DNA of 33,374 bases from a virus. Its lineage: Duplodnaviria > Caudoviricetes. The stretch is from positions 1 through 33,374 of the IMG/VR virus record IMGVR_UViG_3300014202_001535, one strand, 5' to 3'. The notes beneath the pieces were generated by a model, which had not been told where the DNA came from, did not search any database, and saw only the letters and a list, made by a program, of their open reading frames with translations. Each line of letters opens with the position of its first letter. Within the stretch, counting starts at the first letter, position 1. Below are positions 1 through 25,383 of the stretch, in pieces. Made by a program: the position numbers and the translations under genes.

Positions 1-2412
1 TCACGGGGTTTGGTGGCAATCAAGGGCCGTGATTACGTTGGTTGAAGCGTGCTTGAAACTCCATTTCATAAGGGCTGCAACAAGCCTGAAATGCTCATCC
101 ACGTACCCAACATGATAGGCCGTCGACTCGCTTATTTGGAAGTTATAGTTCTCCTCGAGACAAGGCTCATCTCGAGGTACGTGGTTATTATCGGTGGCCG
201 CGTCACCGTCTTCCAGCTTCGTTATTACAATGCTTTCGTCTGCCCTAGTCACGTGAAGCATAGGGTATAGACTTAGCGAATTGGTGCCGGTCATCACGGT
301 CTCATATGTGTTGTATGTGTACCGAGGAACATCAGGTACCTCTATCGAGTCGGGCGTGGCCGGCGGGTCCCGCGTTATTATAAAAGCGGCGCCAAATACA
401 GAGGATGTAACGCCCGGCGTGTTGGTGATTGAAGCGAACCGAGGGTAGGCGTCTAAAACGCCAACGTTTGACTGCGCGGTGCAATGACAATATATGTTAT
501 CTCCAACCTCTAGAACAAACCGGTTCATATTGAGCTCGTTCTGGCGCCGCTCGACCCATTTTACCGTAGCGGTTGCCGGGCGCAGGACGGACCAGACCGA
601 GGAGGTGTACACCCGCGTCCAGTACGACGCCGATAGTGGCACATTGCGGTACGTGTCGGACCAGAATATGGGATCGATTCCCTGCGCTTCGTCGCAGTCG
701 TACATGACGCTCTCTTTTAGCCACTTATCTCCCATCCTTTCTATGGTGTCCACGCGGTAGTAATCAGTAATACAACTCAGGTTCGTTTCAAGACAGGTAT
801 CGTCCGCTAAATTTATCGACTCCTCTATGCTAAAAAAGTCCATTTTGGTTTTTTCGACGGTCTTTATGCTGAAGAACGCCACATTCCCAATCTGCACCGT
901 GTCCGGATCATAATCGTAGGCGCCATTTGTTGAAATGGGCATCAATATGGGGGGAGATGTGTAGTGGCCAATTTCGCCGCTGGTCGTGATGACAGGGAAC
1001 GTGGGCGGCTCACACTCACCCCCATAATCGGGAAATTTAAACTCGGTGTCCTCTTTAAAAAAATAACGGTTGGTCCAGTCGAGCGGCACCCAGCCTGACA
1101 CGGCGCGGCCGGTAATTCCCGCCTGATTATTTTTGGTGTAGGCCATCCTCTCCAGGGCGCGGCGCAGGCCGTCCGGGCCGTAGTCGCCTTCACGCGCCGC
1201 GAGCATCGCGTTTGTGACGGTAAAAACGACCGGTGTTGCCCCGGAAACAACCGCCGAATAATAGGGCGTGCCCAGGTAATTAATGCTCAGCTGCCACCCG
1301 TTGCTAACCCCGGCGCTGGTCCATGAAATTTTATCGGTAGGGCTACCGCTTGAAAGGTTCATAATTGCAGGAGTGAAAACGAGTCTTTGAGTCTCCACCT
1401 GGCTCAGCCCCGTTCCCGGCTCGAGATGCCTCGCAGGGGAGTATGTAAAGTAGTCGTTCGTGTTCGCGGCCGGCATTGGCATGGCCACTATCTCGGACGT
1501 TAAATTCGTGGTCCTCCACCCGAACACATTTACGTCGACCAGGTTTGTCGTCGCCTCCCACGGCAGATCGGCGCAGGCCAGCATTTGTGTGCGGCCGCCG
1601 GCGACGACTTGCACGACGTCGGCCATCGGTATCCAGCGGTTCGTTTCGAGGCCGCAATTAAATACGGCCACAGAGTTCGGTGTGTGCCATTGCCACTCAT
1701 CCTCACGCGGGTAGTAATAGTATGGTATCAGCTGCCGCACGTACTCCTTCAGAACAGCCAAATCGAGCGGGCGAAATAGGCCGCTGTATTTACGGTATGC
1801 TCCGCCATAATTCGCGGAGTCCGAGAACGTCGCGGAAAGGTCCAGCGCTCCTCCATGCGCCGATGCATAGCGCTGCGCGCCGACACCGTTGATTATTATC
1901 GACTGGTTGGGCTCGACGCCATAGCTCGCGTACACGGCGGCACACCGCTCCGCCGTCGCCTCCCACAGTTCGTAGAGTTGAGCCTCCGCTCTGGTCATGG
2001 CCACCTGCTGGGTAACCTGCGACGCCGTCGCGAACCAATCAAATGAATACGCCAGTTCATCGACGCAGATAACGACGCCCGTACTGGCCCATGAGCCGAG
2101 CAGATTGGTGTTAATCGGCACCGAAGAATAAAGGTCCTCGAAAATAAAATCATTGTCAGGTACCGCCGGCAACCGGAAGTCGGGAAACGGCAGCAAATGC
2201 GTGGGGCCGTAAAAATGCCGGAACATAAAATCCGGGCACGATTGATATTCGTTGTCCCCGGTAATATCCCACTCGAACTCGACGACGCGAACATACATTC
2301 TGTTGGTCGCGACGATCTCGCTCATCGATCCGTTCGTGGACCATACCAGCGGCGTGAACGCACAGACCGCGTTAGTAATAATTAATTGTGCCAGGACTAT
2401 TATTTTTTTCAT
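1..2412 (-). CDS. 803-aa exported protein at the distal end of the tail module (possible tail-tip/receptor-binding or surface protein)
   Basis: Long ORF; N-terminus MKKIIVLAQLIITNAVCA-F resembles a Sec signal peptide; GGAG upstream; TN-rich; overlaps the end of the preceding tail gene. Confidence 0.7.
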   Translation of the reverse strand: MKKIIVLAQLIITNAVCAFTPLVWSTNGSMSEIVATNRMYVRVVEFEWDITGDNEYQSCPDFMFRHFYGPTHLLPFPDFRLPAVPDNDFIFEDLYSSVPINTNLLGSWASTGVVICVDELAYSFDWFATASQVTQQVAMTRAEAQLYELWEATAERCAAVYASYGVEPNQSIIINGVGAQRYASAHGGALDLSATFSDSANYGGAYRKYSGLFRPLDLAVLKEYVRQLIPYYYYPREDEWQWHTPNSVAVFNCGLETNRWIPMADVVQVVAGGRTQMLACADLPWEATTNLVDVNVFGWRTTNLTSEIVAMPMPAANTNDYFTYSPARHLEPGTGLSQVETQRLVFTPAIMNLSSGSPTDKISWTSAGVSNGWQLSINYLGTPYYSAVVSGATPVVFTVTNAMLAAREGDYGPDGLRRALERMAYTKNNQAGITGRAVSGWVPLDWTNRYFFKEDTEFKFPDYGGECEPPTFPVITTSGEIGHYTSPPILMPISTNGAYDYDPDTVQIGNVAFFSIKTVEKTKMDFFSIEESINLADDTCLETNLSCITDYYRVDTIERMGDKWLKESVMYDCDEAQGIDPIFWSDTYRNVPLSASYWTRVYTSSVWSVLRPATATVKWVERRQNELNMNRFVLEVGDNIYCHCTAQSNVGVLDAYPRFASITNTPGVTSSVFGAAFIITRDPPATPDSIEVPDVPRYTYNTYETVMTGTNSLSLYPMLHVTRADESIVITKLEDGDAATDNNHVPRDEPCLEENYNFQISESTAYHVGYVDEHFRLVAALMKWSFKHASTNVITALDCHQTP

Positions 2413-4162
2413 ACCACCACTCTCCGTCTGGAAATGGAACCGGCATCGGCCCCGGTTCTTCGTTTGATACGCCGGTGCGCGTTTTTAGTCGCACAAATGG
2501 GTAAGCTGGTTCTGACTCGGCGCTATGCACAATCTGTCCTTTGTAGACGACGATGCCGTTCCAGCGGCCGGACGCGCCTGAATCGGCCGATGTTGCGTTT
2601 TGAACTGGAGCGATTCCGTCGACCTCCACGTCTCTGCCGGCGCCGGCGTCCTCGGATGTACGCTCGACGGCACTTTGAGACCAGGGCCGCAGCCGGTTCG
2701 CTCTCAGCAGCTCCTGGTAGTCCTGCATCGTGAGGTGCGCGGCGAAACCAAAATCGATCGTGGTCATGCCGGCGTCGATATTGTCGGTCACCGACTGCAC
2801 CATCGCTGCCATGGTTGCCCATGCCGTTTCACCGTCGGATAAATTAAGCTTGAGCCCCGGCCGGTGCGTGCCTGGGCACTCCGCCGCGAGCAGTATAACG
2901 GACCCCTGATGGTTAAGCGCGCCCAGCGCACCGTAGAGGCGCTCAGCCAGGCCGGTGGGTATGGGCTCGGCATATTCTTCGACCGTGTTCTTGCGGTACG
3001 TTTTATTAAAGCAATCGGTGGCCACGGTATTGGTCGTGAATATCTTCCCGGTGATGGTCCTGGCGACGTCGTCCACCGTCTGCGTGTAATTTATCGTCAT
3101 GGTTACCGTGCACCGCTCGGCCTCCTTGCCGTCGGCGCGCATCCAATCGGTCACCATGCCCTCGAGCAGCTCGCGCTCGAATTCCGACGTATTGACCACA
3201 TCGCCGACGATCGAGATAGCGCTGATCGATGCATCGGCCAGCCATTTGTTCTTTTCTTTGAGCCAGACGATCCAGTCCGGGTTATTGTCCGGAAACTCTT
3301 CGACCTTGATTTTCTGCCGCTGCGAGCTCATACGCGACCCGGCCAGCTCCACCGTGAGTATCAGCGCGCCGGGCTGCAGCGTTTCCGCTTCCGTCGGGTA
3401 CCGGTCCTCGATGATGTTCCGGTAGCTGTTGTCGTCGATCGTGTGGATCTGCTCGTACTTGACCGAAACGACCGGCACTTGCATATCAGGCCGCGGCGTC
3501 ACGTCATAATCGTGGACGCCGCCCGTGATCATGTTGATCGTCGCGGACGACTGGGCCGACTTCGGCCGTATGTGAATCGTCGGCGGCGTCGTAGTGTAGT
3601 CCACCCAGCTCGCCGCATCCGGCGCCCAGCGCAGCAGTGTGCGCAAGCACTCCCCGCACAGACAGTCGAGCGCCTCTGTGTAGGGGAAATATCCCGGCAC
3701 GTCGATCGTGCCGATCTGCAGGTCCACGCCGGCGCTGATGGCGTAAGCAATAATTTCCGTCATCGCCTGCGCGATCGTCTGCCTCGTTCCGTTCGCGGCC
3801 TGCCCGAGTATACACCGGCTCTTGTACTGCTCGATGACCGTCTCGGTGACCGCATCCCACATCAGCCAGGTCTGTTGAAACACGGTGCGGTCTAGCTCGT
3901 GCCAGGCATTAAGCGCCTGAAACTCCCGCCCTTCGAGGCGTCCGCTGCCGGCAGTTCGTGGCGTGTTTGTTTTCCCGACGAACCAGACTGTGGAATCTTT
4001 TTTAAGCGTGACGACATCGCCGTACTCAAACGACGGCGCGTCGGTGAAATCCTCGGAGAGCGAAAAGGAAAGACTGTCCGGAGCGAATGATTTTCGAACG
4101 CGGGTAAGCCGCGTCCCTTTCAGGTTCTTGACCTCGACATCGTTGATTTTCCAAGTGGCCAC
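2372..4162 (-). CDS. Putative tail tip/baseplate hub protein (596 aa)
   Basis: Directly follows the tape-measure gene (TAG/GTG overlap at 4160-4164); hub-like N-terminus (SFEYGDVVTLKKDSTVWFVG) and C-terminal segment (VQSVTDNIDAGMTTIDFG). Confidence 0.65.
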   Translation of the reverse strand: MATWKINDVEVKNLKGTRLTRVRKSFAPDSLSFSLSEDFTDAPSFEYGDVVTLKKDSTVWFVGKTNTPRTAGSGRLEGREFQALNAWHELDRTVFQQTWLMWDAVTETVIEQYKSRCILGQAANGTRQTIAQAMTEIIAYAISAGVDLQIGTIDVPGYFPYTEALDCLCGECLRTLLRWAPDAASWVDYTTTPPTIHIRPKSAQSSATINMITGGVHDYDVTPRPDMQVPVVSVKYEQIHTIDDNSYRNIIEDRYPTEAETLQPGALILTVELAGSRMSSQRQKIKVEEFPDNNPDWIVWLKEKNKWLADASISAISIVGDVVNTSEFERELLEGMVTDWMRADGKEAERCTVTMTINYTQTVDDVARTITGKIFTTNTVATDCFNKTYRKNTVEEYAEPIPTGLAERLYGALGALNHQGSVILLAAECPGTHRPGLKLNLSDGETAWATMAAMVQSVTDNIDAGMTTIDFGFAAHLTMQDYQELLRANRLRPWSQSAVERTSEDAGAGRDVEVDGIAPVQNATSADSGASGRWNGIVVYKGQIVHSAESEPAYPFVRLKTRTGVSNEEPGPMPVPFPDGEWWYEKNNSPGTINYY

Positions 4163-5562
4163 TAGCGGACCCCGCTGTACTTGAACTGCGCATTGATCTG
4201 GTCGAGCTCCTTCCGAAATTGTTTCATCTGCGCATCGCGGCCGCGGAATTGAGCGCCGACCTCTTTGAACTCGTCGATCACTGCCTGCAGCGCCTCGGCG
4301 ATCGCCGCATCCGTGCGTGAGGTATCCTGAGCGATTTTATATGCTTCCATCACCAGGTCTTTCCCACGTGCGACCGCGGCCCGACCTTCATCGCCACCGG
4401 CGACCGTCTGCCCATACTTGTTCTTTCCGCCGGTTACGACACTGCCGGCCGCATCGGCCGCCATTTCATCGGGAGTGCGAGCCGCGTCCTTCTTTTCCTT
4501 TTCCTTCTGCTGCTCATTTTTCCGTGCGGCTTCAGCACGCCGCACCTGGGCAGATGTTGTTACTTCCGTCGCGGCCTGCTGAGTGCCCCTCACCGTTCGA
4601 TTGGCGGCCTCTTCCTCCGCGACTTCATTCGCTTTATCTCTCGCGGCCTTGGCCGCTTCCTCTGCAACCGATCGTGCTACGGCTGCGGCGGCCTCTGCCT
4701 TCTTGGCCTCCGTAATACGCTCCGTTGTGTTGAGCTCGTCGTGCATGTACCCGCTTTGGTATTCCTCGGGCACGTCGCGGGTTTCCATATCAATATCGTG
4801 GATCGCTTTCGTCGCCGCGAAGAGAGCCGCGTTGGCTTCCTGCAGGCGACTCTCGGCGGCACGTGCGGCCTGCTCCGTTTCCTCTATCCGCCTCCGGCTG
4901 GCCGCCTCCTGCTCGCCGTACTTCATGTCCTCGTATTTTCGCTTTGTCTCTGCAGAGGCTTTTTCTTTTTCCGCCGGCGTCATATCGCTGGCGTCGATTT
5001 CCGCCAGCTTGAGCGCGAGCCTGGCATCGAGCAGCTTCATTTGCCGCGCGAGCAGTTTGTCGATGGTCGCGATGGCTTTGTCAACCTCGTCGCCATAATC
5101 CTTCATCTGCTGGCGGGCGTGTTCCATCGAGGCTTTGGCCGCCTCCTCCATATGCTCGGCGAGCGTCTTGGTTTCGCCTGCGGCTTTGCCGGCTGCCGCG
5201 CCGGATTTTTCCAGCTCATCGGTCTGGCTGCGAAACGCCGCCACGGCGCTAAGGACCAGCGACACGACCGCGCCCAGTATAGCGATGATCACACCCCAGC
5301 CGGACGCCACAAACGCGCGTGACGCCGCGGCCGCCTGCAGCGTCGCCGATGCCAGCATGCGCATGCCGGCGGCGGTGCCGGTGATCGCCCCTTGTCCGCC
5401 GCGCAGCACTGCGGTAATGAGCCGCCCGCCCGCGGCGACCTTGTCCAGGCCGCCCGAGGCCGACCCGGCCGCATCGTTGACGTTCTTTATCTCGTCAACC
5501 GCCTGCTGCCCGCCGTCGCCCTCCTTCTTGGTGCGGAATAATATTTCAAAGAGTTTGCTCAT
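4162..5562 (-). CDS. Tape measure protein (short, 466 aa)
   Basis: Ala/Glu/Lys-rich helical protein with a hydrophobic segment (GWGVIIAILGAVVSLVLSAV) and a TMP-like N-terminus; located in the tail module. Confidence 0.75.
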   Translation of the reverse strand: MSKLFEILFRTKKEGDGGQQAVDEIKNVNDAAGSASGGLDKVAAGGRLITAVLRGGQGAITGTAAGMRMLASATLQAAAASRAFVASGWGVIIAILGAVVSLVLSAVAAFRSQTDELEKSGAAAGKAAGETKTLAEHMEEAAKASMEHARQQMKDYGDEVDKAIATIDKLLARQMKLLDARLALKLAEIDASDMTPAEKEKASAETKRKYEDMKYGEQEAASRRRIEETEQAARAAESRLQEANAALFAATKAIHDIDMETRDVPEEYQSGYMHDELNTTERITEAKKAEAAAAVARSVAEEAAKAARDKANEVAEEEAANRTVRGTQQAATEVTTSAQVRRAEAARKNEQQKEKEKKDAARTPDEMAADAAGSVVTGGKNKYGQTVAGGDEGRAAVARGKDLVMEAYKIAQDTSRTDAAIAEALQAVIDEFKEVGAQFRGRDAQMKQFRKELDQINAQFKYSGVR

Positions 5563-5585
5563 TTATGGCGTCCGGGTGAACGTTT

Positions 5586-6422
5586 TCACTGCACACCCCA
5601 TCTTTGTTTGACTATATAAATTATTTTATACTGGTCTGCTAAGCTCGGCGCTGGCTGCCACAGTGCGACTTCGCCCACATCGGCAAATGCTCTAGTTGTC
5701 ACGTCCGGGAAAATCTCCCCTAGCCTATATCCCGCATTCCACCCGATGCCCGCATTAATTACGCTGTTTGTATCCGTTGCCCCGTTAGCCCGAAGTACCA
5801 CATCAGAAAACGATGAAAATGCCGCCGAAACAACTGTCGGCGCGGCATTCGTCACATCAACAGGAAATAATATATATTGGAGATTGTTTGTACTAGAACC
5901 TGTATCCCGGTGAGCTATTACAGTTGCGTTGTTTTCCTGCACAAGGCCCGCCGACCGAGTGGCGAAGCGCCATGAATTACTCCGGTCGTTGCCACCCGGC
6001 ACGCCACACTGCAAAATTGATCCCGACCAATGAATCCCGCTGTGTTTCGGCATTGTTGTTTTTATGACTGCTACGGCGAAAAATGACTGAGTTGCGTGAG
6101 GTAAATATGCGTAGCTCATCCAGTTTGTTCTATTGAATCTAAGCACAGACATTCCGTTGATGCCGTTAGTTATGTAGGTTGGGCAGTTGGCGCTGTTTGT
6201 TTGCGTCGCGTTGCGCTGCCAAATGCTGTAATCAAGATTATTCGCTACCACTCCGGCGTTGGTGTGTCCCGTTATCAAGTCGTGTCGATGCCAGAGCTGC
6301 AGTCCCTCTATTTGATTAATATCAAAGGCCGCCTGCCACAAATCCTCAAACGCGTCCGGCGGAAGCTCGGCGCGCGAAATAATGCCGGTGAGCAGCAGGA
6401 ATATTATTGGGAGCCTTATCAC
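5586..6422 (-). CDS. Exported LamG/concanavalin-like domain protein (278 aa)
   Basis: GTG start overlaps the upstream TGA (GTGA at 6419-6422); signal peptide MIRLPIIFLLLTGIISRA; motif GLQLWHRHD...NATQ...PTYITNGINGMSVLRF...GEVALW typical of LamG-like jelly-rolls; lower GC than flanks. Confidence 0.7.
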   Translation of the reverse strand: MIRLPIIFLLLTGIISRAELPPDAFEDLWQAAFDINQIEGLQLWHRHDLITGHTNAGVVANNLDYSIWQRNATQTNSANCPTYITNGINGMSVLRFNRTNWMSYAYLPHATQSFFAVAVIKTTMPKHSGIHWSGSILQCGVPGGNDRSNSWRFATRSAGLVQENNATVIAHRDTGSSTNNLQYILFPVDVTNAAPTVVSAAFSSFSDVVLRANGATDTNSVINAGIGWNAGYRLGEIFPDVTTRAFADVGEVALWQPAPSLADQYKIIYIVKQRWGVQ

Positions 6423-8953
6423 AGCGATGACGCCTCCCATGCCGAGCGAAATGCGCGGGATCGGAACAAAATGTTTTTTACGTCATTCGTGGGTATCGCG
6501 ATCGTTCCTGTGCCGCTCACGTTCGTCACGCTGAACGTGATCGGCCAAGAACCTGCGTTGAGGTGGAAGCTGATTCCGTTAACCTGGCTGGTGAGCGCGG
6601 AGGCGATTGCGATCGTCGTCGCACCCGTGGCCCAGTACGCCTGGTGGTAGCCGTTGCTCGGGTGCAGTACAATATTGGTGGCAGGCGGGATCGTGTGAAA
6701 ATCATTCGCGCCGGTGAACCTATTGCGAAATTTCGGTCGCACGATGATGAACTCGCCGTTGGTCGTCACGGTCGTCTCGGGGAAAAAGTCCGGCTCAAAC
6801 TCGATGATGTTGCAGATTTGCGTCACGACGACGGAGCCGGAGATAAACGATACGCGGGTAATCGCGCCGGACACCACGGCGATTGATACAAGTTGCGTGG
6901 CATCGCTGCGCGTGATGGGCGCATTCGGAGACATATCGCCGCTTGGCACATAGACATGATCGGCTGCACTAAAGTCAATCGTTCCGGTGGCTGCGCCTCC
7001 GCGGTTGACCACCGCCTGCAGCGTGTCTGCCTCGGAGGTCAGATAACCTACAAGCGCGTGATCTCCCCAGGCGTGCGCCTCCAGCGCCGCGGCGATGCCG
7101 TTGGTTGCGTATGGGGATAGATTGATAATCGGCTCAGGCCCGCCGGAGCTCGTGACTTGCATCAGGTTCGTGTTGCCCGATAAAATATTGGTAATCGTTC
7201 CGGCTCCGCCGCCGCCGGTAATGCCATCGAGGTTTGAGCCGTTACCAAAGATCGGCAAATGAAACGCGATCTGCCCGCCGCCCTCAATATCGTTTGTCGA
7301 GACGGCCAGGACGCGATAGTACAGCGCACTGGTTATCGAATATGTCAGCGTATACGTGCCGTTGAAAAGGTCCGGCCAGGTTGACTCATAGTCGTTGGTC
7401 GATGATTCCGCCCAGGTGTTCAGATCGCTTGATTCCTCCAGGTACGGCCGGAAAAGCGACGAGGCCGCCACGACCACAGCCTGCGTTCCATCGGAATATT
7501 GAAACGCCACGATCCGCGGCTCGACAATCCCGCCGCCGGTAATTTCAACGGCCCGTGTGCCCGCAAAGTCAAATCGAATGGTTTCATTCGTCTGGTAAAT
7601 CTCCCAAAATTGTCCGGGCCGGAGTTTCTTGTAATTCAAATCCGCGCCCACAAGAGACGGCGTGATGTTGTTTATCCCTGCCAGCAGCGCATTGTAAGCA
7701 TTACGGAGCGCCTGCGCATTGACTACCTGCCTGACCGGTGCGTCATCCGTTGGCGTATCCACAAGAATAATTTGAGCAACCGTATCGTTTGTGAACAGAT
7801 ACCGATCGGTCTCTGTAAATCGCGAACGGGCAATGCCAACTATTTCCAGCACATCCGGCCGCCCGAGCGGGTCAGGAGTCTCATACCCCAGATACTGCAC
7901 CCTCACATGGTTCGGCAGAAGATTATTGACCGGCATAATGTTCACGCCATTGGCGATAGGAAATACATTGCTCCCCGTCCAGGTTATGGTACGCAAGTCC
8001 TGTGCATCTCCCTCGGCGTACACGGTTGATATGGCAATATTCCCAACCCCCAGGGTATTCTGCACCAGCAGCTCGATATAGGCCGTGTTGTCCGGATTAT
8101 GGATGGAAAAAAAGTCGTGGAAATAAACGCTCTCGCCCGGCTCAAGGGAGAGAATGTCCGTGATGTTGGTTGAAGACGAATCCGATCCCCACCCGTAGAT
8201 TGTTACATCCATCTGCCAGTTGGTGGAGGATCCGGCCGGCGCCGGATCGAGCGGCCACACTTCACGCAGCCGCTCCTCCGTTTCGTTCTTGAGCAGCGCC
8301 GCGGCCCGCAATTCATCCAGCTCGCCGGTGTAGGCAAGCGTGTCTGCCACTTCACCGGCAAATATCGTTTCAGAAATAACGGTTAGTCTCTCACGCGGGC
8401 CTGCCACGCTGTTATATTTCAGCCTAATTGTTCCGACATCGTCTTCATTCAGCATTCGCTGAAATATAATTTCCTTGCTGGCTGTCCCGTGATTAGGCTG
8501 CATGATAATGCCGGCCGGATTTGAGCCGCCCATAATCAGCGGCCCGGTCATCGGCTCGGACCCATCGAGCGGAAGAAAGCGAGCGAGATCCGTCAGCCTG
8601 GCGACCACGCCGGGGTTCACACCCAGCGGAATATCAGCGCCATTCCCCACGACCGTCTCATCGGTGTTGGTCACCGATCCACCGCCCGACGGCAAATTGC
8701 CGAGCGCCTCTACGACCCAGTTGCTGTCCGCTTTCGTGGCGAGGCCGGCGGTCACCTCGGCGACCCATTGCGTGTCCAGCGATGTCAGGCCCAGCGCATC
8801 GAGGATGCGCACGCGCTCGATTGTCCAAAGATTCGTGTGCGTCCTCAGTCCGGTCTGGTCCGCCTGTATCGCCGACGGGCGGATCGGCGGCTGTGCATGA
8901 CCGGTGCCGGCCGCGAAAACGATGAGCGGCAACATAATCAAAAATTTTTTCAT
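6419..8953 (-). CDS. Exported tail-fibre-like protein (844 aa)
   Basis: ATG at 8953 overlaps the upstream TGA (ATGA); signal peptide MKKFLIMLPLIVFAAGTGHA; tail-fibre-like motifs FLPLDGSEPMTGPL, AHAWGDHALVGYLTSEADTLQAV and FGNGSNLDGI. Confidence 0.72.
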   Translation of the reverse strand: MKKFLIMLPLIVFAAGTGHAQPPIRPSAIQADQTGLRTHTNLWTIERVRILDALGLTSLDTQWVAEVTAGLATKADSNWVVEALGNLPSGGGSVTNTDETVVGNGADIPLGVNPGVVARLTDLARFLPLDGSEPMTGPLIMGGSNPAGIIMQPNHGTASKEIIFQRMLNEDDVGTIRLKYNSVAGPRERLTVISETIFAGEVADTLAYTGELDELRAAALLKNETEERLREVWPLDPAPAGSSTNWQMDVTIYGWGSDSSSTNITDILSLEPGESVYFHDFFSIHNPDNTAYIELLVQNTLGVGNIAISTVYAEGDAQDLRTITWTGSNVFPIANGVNIMPVNNLLPNHVRVQYLGYETPDPLGRPDVLEIVGIARSRFTETDRYLFTNDTVAQIILVDTPTDDAPVRQVVNAQALRNAYNALLAGINNITPSLVGADLNYKKLRPGQFWEIYQTNETIRFDFAGTRAVEITGGGIVEPRIVAFQYSDGTQAVVVAASSLFRPYLEESSDLNTWAESSTNDYESTWPDLFNGTYTLTYSITSALYYRVLAVSTNDIEGGGQIAFHLPIFGNGSNLDGITGGGGAGTITNILSGNTNLMQVTSSGGPEPIINLSPYATNGIAAALEAHAWGDHALVGYLTSEADTLQAVVNRGGAATGTIDFSAADHVYVPSGDMSPNAPITRSDATQLVSIAVVSGAITRVSFISGSVVVTQICNIIEFEPDFFPETTVTTNGEFIIVRPKFRNRFTGANDFHTIPPATNIVLHPSNGYHQAYWATGATTIAIASALTSQVNGISFHLNAGSWPITFSVTNVSGTGTIAIPTNDVKNILFRSRAFRSAWEASSL

Positions 8954-9555
8954 ACGGGGTCTCCCCATGTATCTGTTGGTACGCCATCGACCATGACCGG
9001 AAGTTTCGGACGCCATCGTTGATCCTCCTGAAAAAAAGCCTCCCAGGCGCCATTGCGAAGGCGCCAGGTGTCGCCGGTCGGGTTGACGACTATGGGGCCG
9101 GGCAGGCCGTTGCCGTTTCCGTCCTCGACAAAAATAATCGGGCCGCCGCCGAAGGTTATTTTATTGCCGGCATCTGTGACGCCGCTGACTACAAGCCAAA
9201 ACGCCCGCTCGCGGCCGTTGAGGACGATGTTGGTGTCCTCGGCCTCGAATTCCACGGCGGCGTGCTGATCCGCGCCGGCGTTCCACTGCTCCATGGTCAT
9301 TTCATCGTCAATGTCTTCGGCGAGCACCTCCTTCTCCAGAAACGGCAGCCCGGTCCGGCTCGCGTCAAACATCTCAATTTTAAGCGTGGCCAGGTTCGAC
9401 GGCGTGACCAATTCGTTCATGTAGAACAGGCCCATCTCCACGCGCAGATCGTTGCCTCGCCACACCCGCGGCGTCTCGCCGGTCAGCGCATCGATGACGC
9501 CGTAATGTGTGCCGTGCTCGATGCGTAAGCGAATCCTTGCAGTTTCAAGTATCAA
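8950..9555 (-). CDS. Tail protein, possible BppU-like fibre/baseplate adaptor (201 aa)
   Basis: Beta-rich ORF coupled to both neighbours; sits immediately before the fibre-like gene. Confidence 0.5.
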   Translation of the reverse strand: MILETARIRLRIEHGTHYGVIDALTGETPRVWRGNDLRVEMGLFYMNELVTPSNLATLKIEMFDASRTGLPFLEKEVLAEDIDDEMTMEQWNAGADQHAAVEFEAEDTNIVLNGRERAFWLVVSGVTDAGNKITFGGGPIIFVEDGNGNGLPGPIVVNPTGDTWRLRNGAWEAFFQEDQRWRPKLPVMVDGVPTDTWGDPV

Positions 9556-9941
9556 CTGACACCTCCCGCGATAACAACGTATTCATGAAATGTTCGCGCG
9601 CCGAGAAACCAGCCACTGTGCGTCTCGATCGCGGCCGCGGCGAATACCGTATTCGTCGTGCCGCTGCCGACATTGCTCTGCGCGATAATGGTCAGTGTGC
9701 CGGACTTCACCAGCGTCGCGTGATGGTTGGCCACAAACGCCTGGGCAGCCTGTGCCGTTGCGTGCGTGCGCTCCACCCTGAACGCAATCGTGTGCAGGGA
9801 ATTTCCGCGGGCGAACGGTACAATCGCGGCCGCCCGAACAACCGGCTCGGCCTGCACAACTTCCCGCCCGTCGATTTTAAACGACTCCACACTCTCCGCA
9901 CCGCCGGGCGCGAGTTCTGATGCTCCCAGGGTAATCTTCAT
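9552..9941 (-). CDS. Small tail protein, possibly distal-tail-like (129 aa)
   Basis: Follows the tail tube gene; beta-strand-rich; coupled to the next gene. Confidence 0.5.
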   Translation of the reverse strand: MKITLGASELAPGGAESVESFKIDGREVVQAEPVVRAAAIVPFARGNSLHTIAFRVERTHATAQAAQAFVANHHATLVKSGTLTIIAQSNVGSGTTNTVFAAAAIETHSGWFLGARTFHEYVVIAGGVS

Positions 9942-9945
9942 TTTT

Positions 9946-10893
9946 TTACACCAGGCTGAACAGCCACAGAACTTGGGGAGCAGCGCCGGTGAACCGGTGC
10001 GCGGTGACGAAGGTCAGCTCGCCGTTGCGGTTGGTCACGTCGCCGTAGGCAAGCGATCCCGTATCAATTCCCGCCTGGTAGATCGTCGCTGTTTTCGGCG
10101 TCTCTACGCCGAGCTCCGTGAAAACCAGGTTCTGATTGTTCTTCGCCAGGCTTTGACCAGGCAGCACCGCGGTCGCGCCCTGCAGCTTCATGAGGTCGTA
10201 GATATCGGCCTCGGTGAGATTACCCGGCTTTAACTTCGCCTTCACGCGCAAGGACTTCAGGTAGATGTCGACGGCGCCGAAGGCGTCCATCTTTTTAATT
10301 TCTACCTGAGGCTCGATCGTGATTTCAGCAGGCCCCTCGAAGTGAATATCGATTCCGCCAAAGGCCGCCTTCCAACGGCGCGACGGCGCGCTGAACGTGC
10401 CGGCATACGTGAGGCTGAGCGCATTATCCGTTACGGCGTTAAACGCATCGGCAGCGTCGAGGTCCGCGTTGTCCTTCTGCAGCGCGGTGATCATCGCGTC
10501 GCCGTTGATCGTGACCGATGTGCCGAGCCGAATGGTGGCCGGCTTGGTCAGTGCCCAGCGTGAGTAGGCGATATTTTTGCCGGCGCCGGTCTGCACCTGC
10601 AGCGCGGCCGCCTGCATGATGCTCTTGCCGATGTCCGCGACGCCGTAGGTGGGGACGCAGCATTTGTTGAAACCAACCGCATCGCCGGCCGGAGTAAACG
10701 AAAGCTCCATGTGCTGGCTCTTCAGCCGGGGGTCGTACTCCCCCGCGAGACTGGTTTTAGCCGCCCAGGTCTCGCGCACAATCTTTTCGTTTATGTCGCC
10801 CTCGGTGATCACGTCCACGACGGGATCGCCGGGAAAGCGGATAATAGCCGGGCCGGCGATGAGATCAGGTGAATCGAATACTCCAGTGGTCAT
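9946..10893 (-). CDS. Major tail tube protein (315 aa)
   Basis: Strong SD (AAGGAG); position after tail completion genes; size and beta-rich composition typical of siphophage tube proteins; no sheath gene seen. Confidence 0.65.
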   Translation of the reverse strand: MTTGVFDSPDLIAGPAIIRFPGDPVVDVITEGDINEKIVRETWAAKTSLAGEYDPRLKSQHMELSFTPAGDAVGFNKCCVPTYGVADIGKSIMQAAALQVQTGAGKNIAYSRWALTKPATIRLGTSVTINGDAMITALQKDNADLDAADAFNAVTDNALSLTYAGTFSAPSRRWKAAFGGIDIHFEGPAEITIEPQVEIKKMDAFGAVDIYLKSLRVKAKLKPGNLTEADIYDLMKLQGATAVLPGQSLAKNNQNLVFTELGVETPKTATIYQAGIDTGSLAYGDVTNRNGELTFVTAHRFTGAAPQVLWLFSLV

Positions 10894-13448: not shown

Positions 13449-13832
13449 TCAGAACTTGAACCCTTTCTCGCGCATGATTCGGTGATGTTCGTCAGCGGAT
13501 TTGATTCCGCGGCTCGATAAAATTGCGTGGCCCATCTCGTGCTCCGCCTCGATAAACGTGAAATCCGGGTATAAGCCCACGTGCCTGCCGATCGTCGTAC
13601 CGCCATGAATGCCCAGGACACCGACCGCGCGCGGCTTTTGCCAGAACGACACGACTACGCCGCTGCCGGCATATTGTATTCCGAGTTTCTTCTCCGCCGA
13701 CGCCATCGCTGCGTTCAGTTCCGCATGGTGCGACGGCGCGATAATATTCCCGACGCGTGGTTGCGACGGTTTGCTCGAGGAGCAGCCGAATGCCGTGGCA
13801 ATAATTAAAATGAGCGCGATGTTAATTTTCAT
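13449..13832 (-). CDS. Lipoprotein with HEXXH zinc-metallopeptidase motif (127 aa)
   Basis: Lipoprotein signal MKINIALILIIATAFG-C; motif EAEHEMGHAIL; downstream DEHH could supply a third ligand. Confidence 0.65.
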   Translation of the reverse strand: MKINIALILIIATAFGCSSSKPSQPRVGNIIAPSHHAELNAAMASAEKKLGIQYAGSGVVVSFWQKPRAVGVLGIHGGTTIGRHVGLYPDFTFIEAEHEMGHAILSSRGIKSADEHHRIMREKGFKF

Positions 13833-14038
13833 AGTGTTGCGTCTTTCCCTGGGATAACCATAAAGTGCGTCGGAAGATTGTGGTCGACATCGGTCTCAAT
13901 GAGATAACCAGGCCAAACCCACCAGCCGCCAGACTCCGCGTCGTACTGGGTGATGTCGTACTTTTCATGATTCCATGTAACAACAATGTGCTCATTCGTT
14001 TTCGGCGCGTCCTTAAAGGGCTTCCAGATTTTTTCCAT
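13829..14038 (-). CDS. DUF551-like small protein (69 aa)
   Basis: WKPFKDAPK...PTHFMVIP pattern; TGATG coupling to the upstream gene. Confidence 0.6.
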   Translation of the reverse strand: MEKIWKPFKDAPKTNEHIVVTWNHEKYDITQYDAESGGWWVWPGYLIETDVDHNLPTHFMVIPGKDATL

Positions 14039-14859
14039 CACATGCCAATATCGCGCGGCAGCCAAACGCGCTCGGGTTTCCCGACCGGGAGATAGCGGAT
14101 ATCCAGGCGCTGTCCGCCCTGGGCTTCCGGCTTCAGCCAGGAGCAAGTGTGATTCGGCGGAAAGTGCACGCGGTTCTTTCCCGTCGGATCGCACAAGTCC
14201 GCGAATACGCTCATCGCGTCGCCGGAGTGAGAGTGAGAAAACTTCAGCAGGTGGCCGTTTGAATATTTAATCACATACGAGACCTTGTCCGGTATCGATG
14301 CCGGCGCGCCGTTGTCGTCGTAGCGGCCTTTTAAATCCGTTCGCACCACAGAGCCATCATCACGCTTCACGTCGATGTATGTTATTCTGGAGTGAACGGT
14401 GCATTTAACATACACGGGCTGCGCGCCGCCGGCGCGGAAGCTCGTGTCGCCGGTCGCGAACTCGTAAAGCTCGACATGGCCAGGCCAGCGAGCCAGCGCA
14501 TTTTTCACGAAGAAATTAGGAATATATCCGGATTCATATTGCACCAGACGATTGCCGCCCTTGGTCGGCACTTCCCAGGATATTTGTCGCCCAGGATAAA
14601 GGAGTACATTGTCCGGCACGTCCTGCAGCGCGAGGTTCAGGATCGGAAACGACGCGACGGGCGGCACGGCGTTCGTCTCGGTGGCATCGGGGGCATCCGG
14701 CTTTTGTTCCTTCTTCGCCGCGTATTCCTCGATCGCTCGGTCCACGAGTTCATCCACATCCGCGATGACCTCCGTCCAATCGATCTGCGATGATCCGGGC
14801 AGGCTCGCGCAGCCGGAAAGGGCGGCGCATACAAACAAGCTGATAAATATATTTCTCAT
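14038..14859 (-). CDS. Lipoprotein of unknown function (273 aa)
   Basis: Signal MRNIFISLFVCAALSG-C (lipobox LSGC); GAGG SD; Pro-rich linker before a globular domain. Confidence 0.7.
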   Translation of the reverse strand: MRNIFISLFVCAALSGCASLPGSSQIDWTEVIADVDELVDRAIEEYAAKKEQKPDAPDATETNAVPPVASFPILNLALQDVPDNVLLYPGRQISWEVPTKGGNRLVQYESGYIPNFFVKNALARWPGHVELYEFATGDTSFRAGGAQPVYVKCTVHSRITYIDVKRDDGSVVRTDLKGRYDDNGAPASIPDKVSYVIKYSNGHLLKFSHSHSGDAMSVFADLCDPTGKNRVHFPPNHTCSWLKPEAQGGQRLDIRYLPVGKPERVWLPRDIGM

Positions 14860-14866
14860 GGGTTCC

Positions 14867-15196
14867 TCACTTTTTCAGGTTTACGTTTTCAGCGCCCTGG
14901 GCGCGGATAGAAGGCGACACGCCCTCGCTTAGGTTTTCGGTTCGGACATCGCCAAATTTCACATCACCCGGCGTGTAGACGCGGATGAGCGTGGACTTGT
15001 AGTGCAACCCGGAACATCCGGACACCGCCAGCGCCGCCAGCAGCGCCACAGTAAAAAACGGCAGGCGATTCGCCTTGCTGCTTGTGTAACGCCGGCGGAA
15101 CCGCCACTTCACCAAAAGAAAATCAATCAGCGCCATGAGCAGGAATATCACCGCGACAACGGCGATCATCAGTATTATGGAGTAGAGATTATTCAT
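14867..15196 (-). CDS. Membrane protein with an N-terminal TM helix and an internal lipobox-like segment (109 aa)
   Basis: Hydrophobic residues ~6-29, basic loop KWRFRRR, second hydrophobic stretch ending LAVSG-C. Confidence 0.6.
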   Translation of the reverse strand: MNNLYSIILMIAVVAVIFLLMALIDFLLVKWRFRRRYTSSKANRLPFFTVALLAALAVSGCSGLHYKSTLIRVYTPGDVKFGDVRTENLSEGVSPSIRAQGAENVNLKK

Positions 15197-15656: not shown

Positions 15657-16034
15657 TTATTCCTCTCGACCAACGGCGTGAGCCGTTCCGCTGATATTGG
15701 TCGGTGCGCTGAAGCGCAAACCATCACCACGAAACAGTCTGATGACATTGGTTCCGGTGTTTAGCCGACGATCGTTTGCCGCGATGATCTTCGTCCCGAC
15801 CAGGTTGGTCAGAAGGCCGATCTCCTGGGTGATGGTGTAAATGGTCGTCGTTGCGGCTGCGCCTGGCAGAACCAGGTGGTCCAGCACAAACGACGGGTAT
15901 GAGGGCGAACTGTCGGGCTCGTACTCAAAAAAACCGGCGCCATTCACGATTTCGATATCCTTCTTCACCGGCTGCCCGGCGAACAAGGGCACGGCGATGA
16001 GCGCCGCGAGAGTCATTACAATAAGTGATTTCAT
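15657..16034 (-). CDS. Exported small beta-rich protein (125 aa) between capsid and gp36
   Basis: AGGAG SD; signal peptide MKSLIVMTLAALIAVPLFA; three TN motifs. Confidence 0.7.
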   Translation of the reverse strand: MKSLIVMTLAALIAVPLFAGQPVKKDIEIVNGAGFFEYEPDSSPSYPSFVLDHLVLPGAAATTTIYTITQEIGLLTNLVGTKIIAANDRRLNTGTNVIRLFRGDGLRFSAPTNISGTAHAVGREE

Positions 16035-25094: not shown

Positions 25095-25295
25095 TCACTT
25101 TTTCTTTCCATATCCTGGCCGTGCTTCTCTCGTAATCGGTATCGTCATGTACCCGTCGTGTTTAATTTTCTGGATATAATCAATGGTCGCCTGGCGAACG
25201 ATCGCAGCCTTTTTAATTCCCGAGCTGTTGGCAATCTCGGTGAGTTGCTCCTCAATTTCATCGTCGAATCGAATGCTGACGCTGGCCTTTTTCAT
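25095..25295 (-). CDS. Ribbon-helix-helix protein, putative immunity repressor (66 aa)
   Basis: SVSIRF beta-strand, helix DEIEEQLTEIA, G turn, helix KAAIVRQAT (CopG/Arc pattern). Confidence 0.7.
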   Translation of the reverse strand: MKKASVSIRFDDEIEEQLTEIANSSGIKKAAIVRQATIDYIQKIKHDGYMTIPITREARPGYGKKK

Positions 25296-25383
25296 GTCCA
25301 ATGTGTAGCGCGTTTGTAGCGCAACCTCAACCGTAAAAAAATAAAGATTGACGTTGTAGCGCAATGCACTACATTTACCACCA
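25296..25383. promoter_or_regulatory. Divergent promoter/operator region (lysis-lysogeny switch)
   Basis: Rightward TTGACG(25348)-16-TACATT(25370); leftward TTGAGG-17-TACACA; TGTAGCGC at 25304, 25315 and 25355, plus inverted GCACTACA at 25366. Confidence 0.75.

Follow-up and report, generated by a model that had tools for sequence, protein, structure and literature searches.

The stretch of DNA analysed here, called the window, is the whole of IMG/VR record IMGVR_UViG_3300014202_001535 (33,374 bases), and our subject is a group of its late genes that lie among the tail genes and encode proteins beginning with predicted Sec signal peptides (leaders). It is taken to be a Mu-like phage or prophage because it encodes a Mu-type portal (PF06074, E 1.5e-43), an I protease (PF10123, E 9e-14), Gam (PF07352, E 4e-22), a terminase, a major head protein and an ATPase of 347 amino acids (aa) that matches the PHROG DNA transposition protein (MuB-like, E 4e-5); family-profile searches gave no match for the 670-aa neighbour of this ATPase. 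The portal, protease, Gam and MuB-like ATPase are shared with Mu-like transposable phages. Unlike in Mu, no sheath, invertase or Mu-type fibre gene was recognised in the window, and none of its tail genes matches a core tail family of Pfam or PHROG. The late genes are on the minus strand, in the order capsid, a 125-aa protein, connector, lipoproteins, neck genes, a probable tube (315 aa), a 129-aa protein and a 201-aa protein, here called the anchor, followed by an 844-aa protein, a 278-aa protein, a probable tape measure (466 aa), a probable hub (596 aa) and an 803-aa protein (Table 1).

The hub has 2160 relatives at 50% clustering, some of which give weak PHROG hub matches, and served as the marker of the family. 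With an alignment of 12 hub relatives 185 loci were gathered, of which 178 sequences, the window included, carry the hub gene and 147 are non-redundant; searching viral contigs with the hub or the tube protein singly gave no matches. It is inferred that the host is probably a member of the Verrucomicrobiota and perhaps of the Kiritimatiellia: of the 45 relatives located in genomes, 38 are in ones labelled Verrucomicrobiota, Kiritimatiellia or Lentisphaerae (Verrucomicrobiota in the broad sense), the window hub clusters with those of loci L126 and L038 in the hub tree (SH-like approximate likelihood ratio test, SH-aLRT, 97), and L126 has gene families in common with L072, a Kiritimatiellia prophage. 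Hub homologues also occur in bins labelled Bifidobacteriaceae, Proteobacteria or Acidobacteriota (L087, L093, L078, L084, L103, L105); since several of these nest among Verrucomicrobiota prophages in the hub tree, misbinning or a wider host range is possible.

Table 1. Positions of the window features discussed in the text
Feature	Position	Strand	Remarks
803-aa complete open reading frame after the hub gene; candidate tail-tip adhesin, predicted Sec leader	1..2412	-	likely cut after Ala18, mature end Phe19
Probable tail hub, 596 aa, no signal peptide	2372..4162	-	position after tape measure gene; family marker
Probable tape measure, 466 aa	4162..5562	-	Ala/Glu/Lys-rich, one hydrophobic segment; weak matches to pre-hub genes of relatives
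278-aa probable LamG/lectin-like protein, predicted Sec leader	5586..6422	-	GTG start; likely cut after Ala18, mature end Glu19
844-aa fibre-type protein, predicted Sec/signal peptidase I leader	6419..8953	-	likely cut after Ala20, mature end Gln21
Signal-less fibre anchor, 201 aa	8950..9555	-	BppU-N-type immunoglobulin (Ig)-like domain ~1-150, linker, C-terminal beta domain ~160-200
Conserved signal-less tail protein, 129 aa	9552..9941	-	distal-tail-like by position alone
Probable tail tube, 315 aa	9946..10893	-	position and conservation; no family match
Two lipoproteins in the late operon	13449-13832 and 14038-14859	-	the 127-aa one carries an HExxH motif
109-aa protein	14867-15196	-	N-terminal membrane segment, internal lipobox-like stretch; weak NF058595 invert_tail match
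125-aa protein, predicted Sec leader, Thr-Asn pairs	15657..16034	-	between capsid and head-tail connector genes
Ribbon-helix-helix protein	25095-25364	-	divergent from early operon; likely a repressor replacing the Mu c-type one

Predicted leaders and their start codons

Leaders were scored by a home-made rule, not SignalP, that asks for a basic n-region, an uncharged hydrophobic core and small residues at -3/-1. The rule is positive in six of the 45 called window genes, namely the frames starting at 8953, 6422 and 2412 (the 844-, 278- and 803-aa proteins), gene 15657-16034 and the two lipoproteins, and in 10 of 612 core structural genes of relatives, which gives its false-positive rate. The three signal-peptide-like starts that an earlier note on this DNA had placed at 8953, 6422 and 2412 on the minus strand are present there; by our rule these proteins have the n-region, core and -3/-1 residues of Sec/signal peptidase I substrates together with a used start and no further membrane segment. 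At 8953 the start overlaps the stop of the anchor gene, and its Shine-Dalgarno match scores -7.5 kcal; an alternative start at 9016 also has a strong Shine-Dalgarno match and would merely extend the basic n-region. The GTG at 6422 (Shine-Dalgarno -10.2) overlaps the stop of the 8953 gene, and the upstream ATG at 6440 scores 0. For the ATG at 2412 the Shine-Dalgarno value is -7.0 and the structure is open (-2.3), compared with -3.2 and -11.2 at Met30. These ribosome-site energies favour 8953, the GTG at 6422 and 2412 over signal-less alternative starts. Coupling of the leader genes to core tail genes was also proposed earlier; the 2412 gene overlaps the hub gene by 41 nucleotides rather than by the 4 nucleotides of such coupling. 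The last 13 hub codons, which overlap the 2412 leader, have a G+C content at third positions (GC3) of 0.15 vs 0.75 in the rest of the hub, as expected under dual coding with that leader; a GC3 this low occurs in 0 of 570 other segments.

For the 803-aa gene alone it could be argued that translation starts at Met30, which would give an ordinary cytoplasmic tail-tip protein and leave two exported side-fibre parts. The public gene call begins at Met30, without the leader, and 111 of 114 post-hub genes of relatives have no leader; the stronger and more open ribosome site of Met1, the codon bias at the hub end and the Thr-Asn content of the protein (see below) speak against Met30, which we consider an unlikely start. 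The 2412 leader looks real in the window genome and is not the family norm. The leaders in general could instead be uncleaved inner-membrane tethers or relics of captured host genes, with fibres held on the cytoplasmic side and tails assembled at the membrane. Scoring by a home-made rule only leaves room for such tethers, as does the signal-like read at 28 of 429 ATGs near core gene ends, an upper bound in which real downstream leaders are included; the canonical basic-hydrophobic-AxA layout of many unrelated leaders counts against them, as does the distribution of Thr-Asn pairs, and we judge them hardly probable at all.

The 844-aa protein has one Cys and no transmembrane anchor. A segment of 94 residues (617-710) matches PHROG 9729, a tail fibre (E 1e-8), its repeat recurs (E 7e-6) in the leader-bearing protein that fills the corresponding slot in L017, and its look-alikes in the Atlas are fibre clusters (score 0.79), which we treat as a lead only. 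Family searches found no enzyme domain in it, and no particle-attachment domain was recognised. The 278-aa protein matches a PHROG virion protein (E 9e-5) and a protein of relative L057 (E 4e-6) that in turn matches Laminin_G_3 below the curated cut-off; it has no direct Pfam match, and its hhalign probability for LamG is 2%. The fibre-like motif formerly read in the first protein is thus borne out by one PHROG fibre match, while the LamG-like motif of the second is indirect. The 803-aa protein, complete with its stop codon at bases 1-3, has no family match and no Atlas lead. Several candidate features were tried and rejected. Disulfide maturation was considered as the driver of export; with its single Cys the 844-aa protein would not be exported for disulfides, and the 803-aa protein has an odd 13 Cys after the leader. 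A verrucomicrobial surface-protein C-terminal motif, spotted near residue 505 of the 844-aa protein, has no match in the sampled host stretches, and a likeness by eye between the mature N-terminus of the 803-aa protein and post-hub family F38 is unsupported by a hidden Markov model (HMM). Gln at +1 shows no excess (28 of 60 phage tail signal-peptide proteins vs 40 of 90 host proteins), and the window shows no repeat family above chance in positions 1-10000.

A fourth leader gene of this kind, unnoticed in the earlier note, encodes the 125-aa protein. The slot between capsid and connector holds a signal-peptide protein of 157-203 aa in 11 other loci and no gene in 31 loci, and the 125-aa protein is a candidate for an exported head decoration.

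The anchor and the fibre slot in relatives

Modelling of the anchor from a 42-row alignment (predicted local distance difference test score, pLDDT, 90.6) gives an Ig-like domain followed by a small C-terminal beta domain. Foldseek, the sole source of the fold likeness, matches the Ig-like domain of the model to TP901-1 BppU (4v96, E 4e-4; 3uh8, E 3e-3, template modelling (TM) score 0.55 by target), to the neck and baseplate chains 9mt4, 9c39 and 9m8o (Bas63, Sf14 and NF5) and to BppU-domain viral proteins. No Pfam match was found among the 42 members of the anchor family, and searches of PDB sequences with the hub, the anchor and the 278-aa protein were empty. By its model, the 201-aa protein is one with the BppU N-terminal fold, and the window resembles the TP901-1 ORF48 BppU/receptor-binding protein baseplate in having an Ig-like N-terminal tail anchor. 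In that baseplate a separate receptor-binding protein docks on the C-terminal end of BppU; the C-terminal beta domain of the modelled anchor is a candidate docking site for the fibre, and gene order suggests that the short anchor binds it. Complex prediction with anchor residues 150-200 and fibre residues 21-130 gave a score of 0.00, which speaks neither for nor against docking.

The three window proteins with leaders in the tail region returned no full homologue but themselves in the cluster search described below, so conservation of the leaders was tested by gene position. Among 41 non-redundant relatives with the anchor domain, eight have a long anchor (423-1006 aa) that runs on into tail-fibre sequence segments and 33 have a short one (182-293 aa). 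In the slot between anchor and hub, a signal-peptide protein (150 aa or longer) is present in 26 of the 33 short-anchor loci and in none of the eight long-anchor loci (Fisher P 6.7e-5), and a relaxed leader rule gives 27 of 33 vs one of eight. By eye, a slot leader is present in 32 of the 33 short-anchor loci; six of the seven misses are due to the rule or the gene caller, and the remaining one, L098, has no gene in the slot. As to the check proposed earlier, whether relatives in prophages keep the leaders, a leader recurs at the gene slot of 8953 and 6422 and not at that of 2412. A hub tree of 86 rows, ten of whose labels were assigned by eye, has 52 rows with an exported slot protein and 34 without; along it the state switches 20 times, and close sisters differ in it (L070/L009, L045/L037). 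In L126 (1034-5983) and L072, the distal-tail-like gene is followed by a run of seven genes, six of them with leaders, and an anchor of BppU type was not detected; the first gene of the run resembles an anchor by eye and does not match the anchor profile.

What lies behind the leader was examined in 77 slot proteins, cut at 900 aa, most of them leader-bearing and some signal-less comparators. The majority match nothing. The leader-bearing ones include Peptidase_S74 (L085, L042), YadA_head (L024, L164), BppL_N, an endosialidase-N/pectate-lyase segment, GDSL and LamG, as well as PHROG fibre or spike matches. A profile of the domain behind the leader in 12 relatives, a subgroup without a BppU-type gene, matches two signal-less proteins (E 3e-5 and 2e-3), one of which matches Pfam phage_tail_N (lambda-Stf-type) at E 4e-4, below the cut-off; a domain for attachment to the particle, placed after a signal peptide, does not fit easily with cargo destined for the cell surface. 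The GDSL, GH43, pectate-lyase-like and M14 peptidase domains that occur in the slot of relatives would agree with helpers of lysis or dispersal, soluble lectins, esterases or depolymerases that remove capsule or matrix ahead of the released progeny, and so would the failure to recognise an endolysin among the window genes, so that lysis may use unfamiliar envelope enzymes. Such enzyme folds are, however, common on tailspikes, the 844-aa protein has a fibre-repeat match and no enzyme domain, and the S74, YadA and attachment domains indicate trimeric fibres; helpers of this sort are in our estimate very improbable.

The window is unusual in having a leader on the post-hub gene as well. The first post-hub proteins of relatives (for example L064:11726-12220 and L103:11751) are signal-less and of no known family; 47 of 114 begin with a Cys pair (CC/CxC/CxxC) and are possibly a metal-binding tail-tip module. 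A scan of 108 first and second post-hub proteins showed that a few of those in second position are virion-like (L004, L057, L085, L177) and others are methyltransferases or host-type genes.

Thr-Asn pairs in proteins with predicted leaders

The leader-bearing proteins of the window are enriched in the dipeptide Thr-Asn, with 15 observed vs 5.3 expected in the 844-aa protein (P 4.5e-4), 7 vs 1.7 in the 278-aa protein (P 1.7e-3), 15 vs 3.8 in the 803-aa protein (P 1.1e-5) and 3 vs 0.6 in the 125-aa protein (P 0.02); the window hub, anchor, tube, capsid, portal and terminase show no excess. In 60 tail signal-peptide proteins, two of the window included, Thr-Asn is the top dipeptide (2.19x), and it stands at 0.96x in core proteins and 0.92x in post-hub proteins. 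The composition of fibres is no explanation for the excess, because the fused fibres, though rich in both residues, have 15 pairs observed vs 21 expected. The excess goes with the leader and is not seen in fused fibres of comparable composition, which is the point that counts against uncleaved tethers, and its value in the 803-aa protein is the one that counts against a start at Met30.

Host proteins were sampled from two bins, with ~277 kb taken from one of Kiritimatiellia and 400 kb from one of Verrucomicrobiae; G006, a control from outside the Planctomycetes-Verrucomicrobia-Chlamydiae group with unreliable gene calls, and G009, with too little sequence, were left out. Among proteins <1000 aa, signal-peptide proteins have 4.7 Thr-Asn per 1000 aa vs 2.1 in proteins without a hydrophobic segment (101 vs 168 proteins, P 1e-8). 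It may be guessed that Thr-Asn marks a periplasmic modification such as glycosylation; our literature search (titles and abstract openings, few subscription papers, no supplements) found nothing on Thr-Asn modification in Verrucomicrobiota. In the host stretches of the Verrucomicrobiota bins G001 and G010 (L186-L220), Thr-Asn ranks fourth or higher among dipeptides in most classes of protein and is highest in exported and very large ones.

Proposed assembly outside the cytoplasm and its alternatives

By the textbook account, particles of tailed phages are completed in the cytoplasm. Our analysis suggests that the window encodes a split tail fibre, in which the signal-less anchor with the BppU fold would be the tail-bound part and the 844- and 278-aa proteins separate fibre and lectin parts; the 803-aa tip protein probably belongs to the exported parts too. 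In the proposed scheme the cytoplasm would be the place where head, tube, tape measure, hub and anchor are put together, while the 844-, 278-, 803- and 125-aa proteins would pass SecYEG, lose their leaders, fold, the fibres presumably as trimers with modified Thr-Asn sites, and accumulate in the periplasm. When the inner membrane opens at lysis, the exported proteins would bind the C-terminal domain of the anchor, the hub and the head. The likely gain would be access to host modification and particles that become adhesive only once released. Export of the 8953 and 6422 proteins is well supported at the level of sequence because leaders occur family-wide in the short-anchor slot, are excluded where the fibre is fused, and go with a Thr-Asn excess shared with exported host proteins. 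The earlier note had offered export followed either by joining to particles at or after lysis or by display as cell-surface proteins; the export part is sustained for 8953 and 6422, and for the rest we infer joining at lysis to be the better option because the anchor has no fibre of its own and relatives have attachment and trimer-chaperone domains behind a signal peptide. Docking of exported fibre parts on tails built in the cytoplasm is the best explanation we have, and we hold it to be rather probable.

The alternative is that the proteins, though exported, never enter particles and act as envelope adhesins (expressed late or in lysogens), as receptor masks or as exclusion factors, made up of fibre parts, with the particle adsorbing through the hub, the anchor or a gene outside the window. 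Bacteria do export phage-like fibres: the mosaic adhesive trimer (MAT) fibres of Bdellovibrio are phage-fibre-like trimers with signal peptides and often an S74 chaperone (PMC10769870), chromosomally encoded, located at the cell surface and sharing a domain of ~130 aa after the leader. The exported phage-type fibre folds of the window proteins are like MAT in this respect, and MAT shows that such folds can mature after export (PMC10769870); MAT genes are chromosomal, unlike the window genes, which lie inside a phage late/tail operon beside a BppU-like anchor, and for this reason we do not regard the window proteins as MAT. Envelope adhesins would also fit the Thr-Asn excess, common as it is to host exported proteins, the signal-less post-hub gene of most relatives, which could be the true receptor binder, and the end of the record at base 1. 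One would not, however, look for such cargo in alternation with fibres fused to the anchor, nor for an Stf-like attachment domain on it; the leader-bearing genes share their strand with core tail genes and overlap them, with promoter-like sites at chance level (12 vs 8.1 +/- 3.1); C-terminal ends that would hold a protein to the cell are nearly missing (one of 60 tail signal-peptide proteins has a membrane or PEP-CTERM-like anchor there); and the post-hub gene of the window has a leader too. Display on the envelope without entry into particles is accordingly thought improbable, while still deserving some weight.

Several observations weigh against docking at lysis and the export on which it depends. 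The record ends exactly at the stop codon of the 2412 gene (bases 1-3), and what follows base 1 lies outside it, although the proteins are also listed on a source contig of 133,980 bases; no signal-less fibre gene was found in the window, as claimed earlier, and the scan of second post-hub proteins indicates that another fibre past base 1 is possible and not the rule. A word-based, near-length search of 5.8 billion clusters returned no homologue of the 844-, 278- and 803-aa proteins but themselves, and a single-sequence model of the 844-aa protein (pLDDT 33) is unusable. A likeness by eye between the N-terminus of this protein and the motif of 12 related fibres was discarded, as 280 of 1000 shuffles score as high. 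For the 803-aa protein there are the public call at Met30 and the rarity of its leader, since only 3 of 114 relatives have one on their post-hub gene. No exported fibre occupies the slot in 34 of the 86 relatives, and the four of four independent sister pairs that agree (p 0.125) are too few for significance. When very large proteins are kept in, the host classes become equal in Thr-Asn and the no-signal class reaches 1.35-1.9x, an enrichment driven by a few very large, extracellular-looking proteins. Lastly, Akkermansia phage DTMo-2021a (L261) has no exported tail gene and encodes a 646-aa signal-less fibre-like protein (L261:20864-22804). This unannotated Mu-like phage is the sole relative with a cultured host that we found, and offers a ready negative control.

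Compared with known systems, docking at lysis would set the window apart in two respects. The parts of BppU/receptor-binding protein baseplates and lambda Stf-type fibres are all cytoplasmic and are assembled before lysis, whereas the partner genes of the window carry predicted Sec leaders and the relatives switch between fused and split fibres. The Sec pathway is used by phages for signal-peptide and signal-anchor-release (SAR) endolysins and for spanins, and filamentous phages are assembled at the membrane; unlike these endolysins, spanins and filamentous coat proteins, the candidates of the window are tail adhesins. Within the same limits as before, our literature search turned up no account of tail fibres with signal peptides in tailed phages. 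The family offers an unusually clean comparison, since close sisters have either a fused signal-less fibre or a short anchor with an exported fibre, and some of the sister phages are prophages in named Verrucomicrobiota genomes. It also highlights a Thr-Asn signature of the Verrucomicrobiota secretome. If our proposal is true, a final assembly step that depends on export would bring a further compartment into tailed-phage morphogenesis, virions could wear host periplasmic modifications, and progeny from co-infected cells could swap host-range parts. Whether this extends to the whole family seems to us evenly balanced: its members, a large group of transposable tailed phages of Verrucomicrobiota, may finish their particles outside the cytoplasm, the naked heads and tails being set free into a periplasm where fibres, lectins and head decorations, modified by the host, already wait to attach to anchors built in the cytoplasm, and the family would have switched repeatedly between this route and fused fibres.

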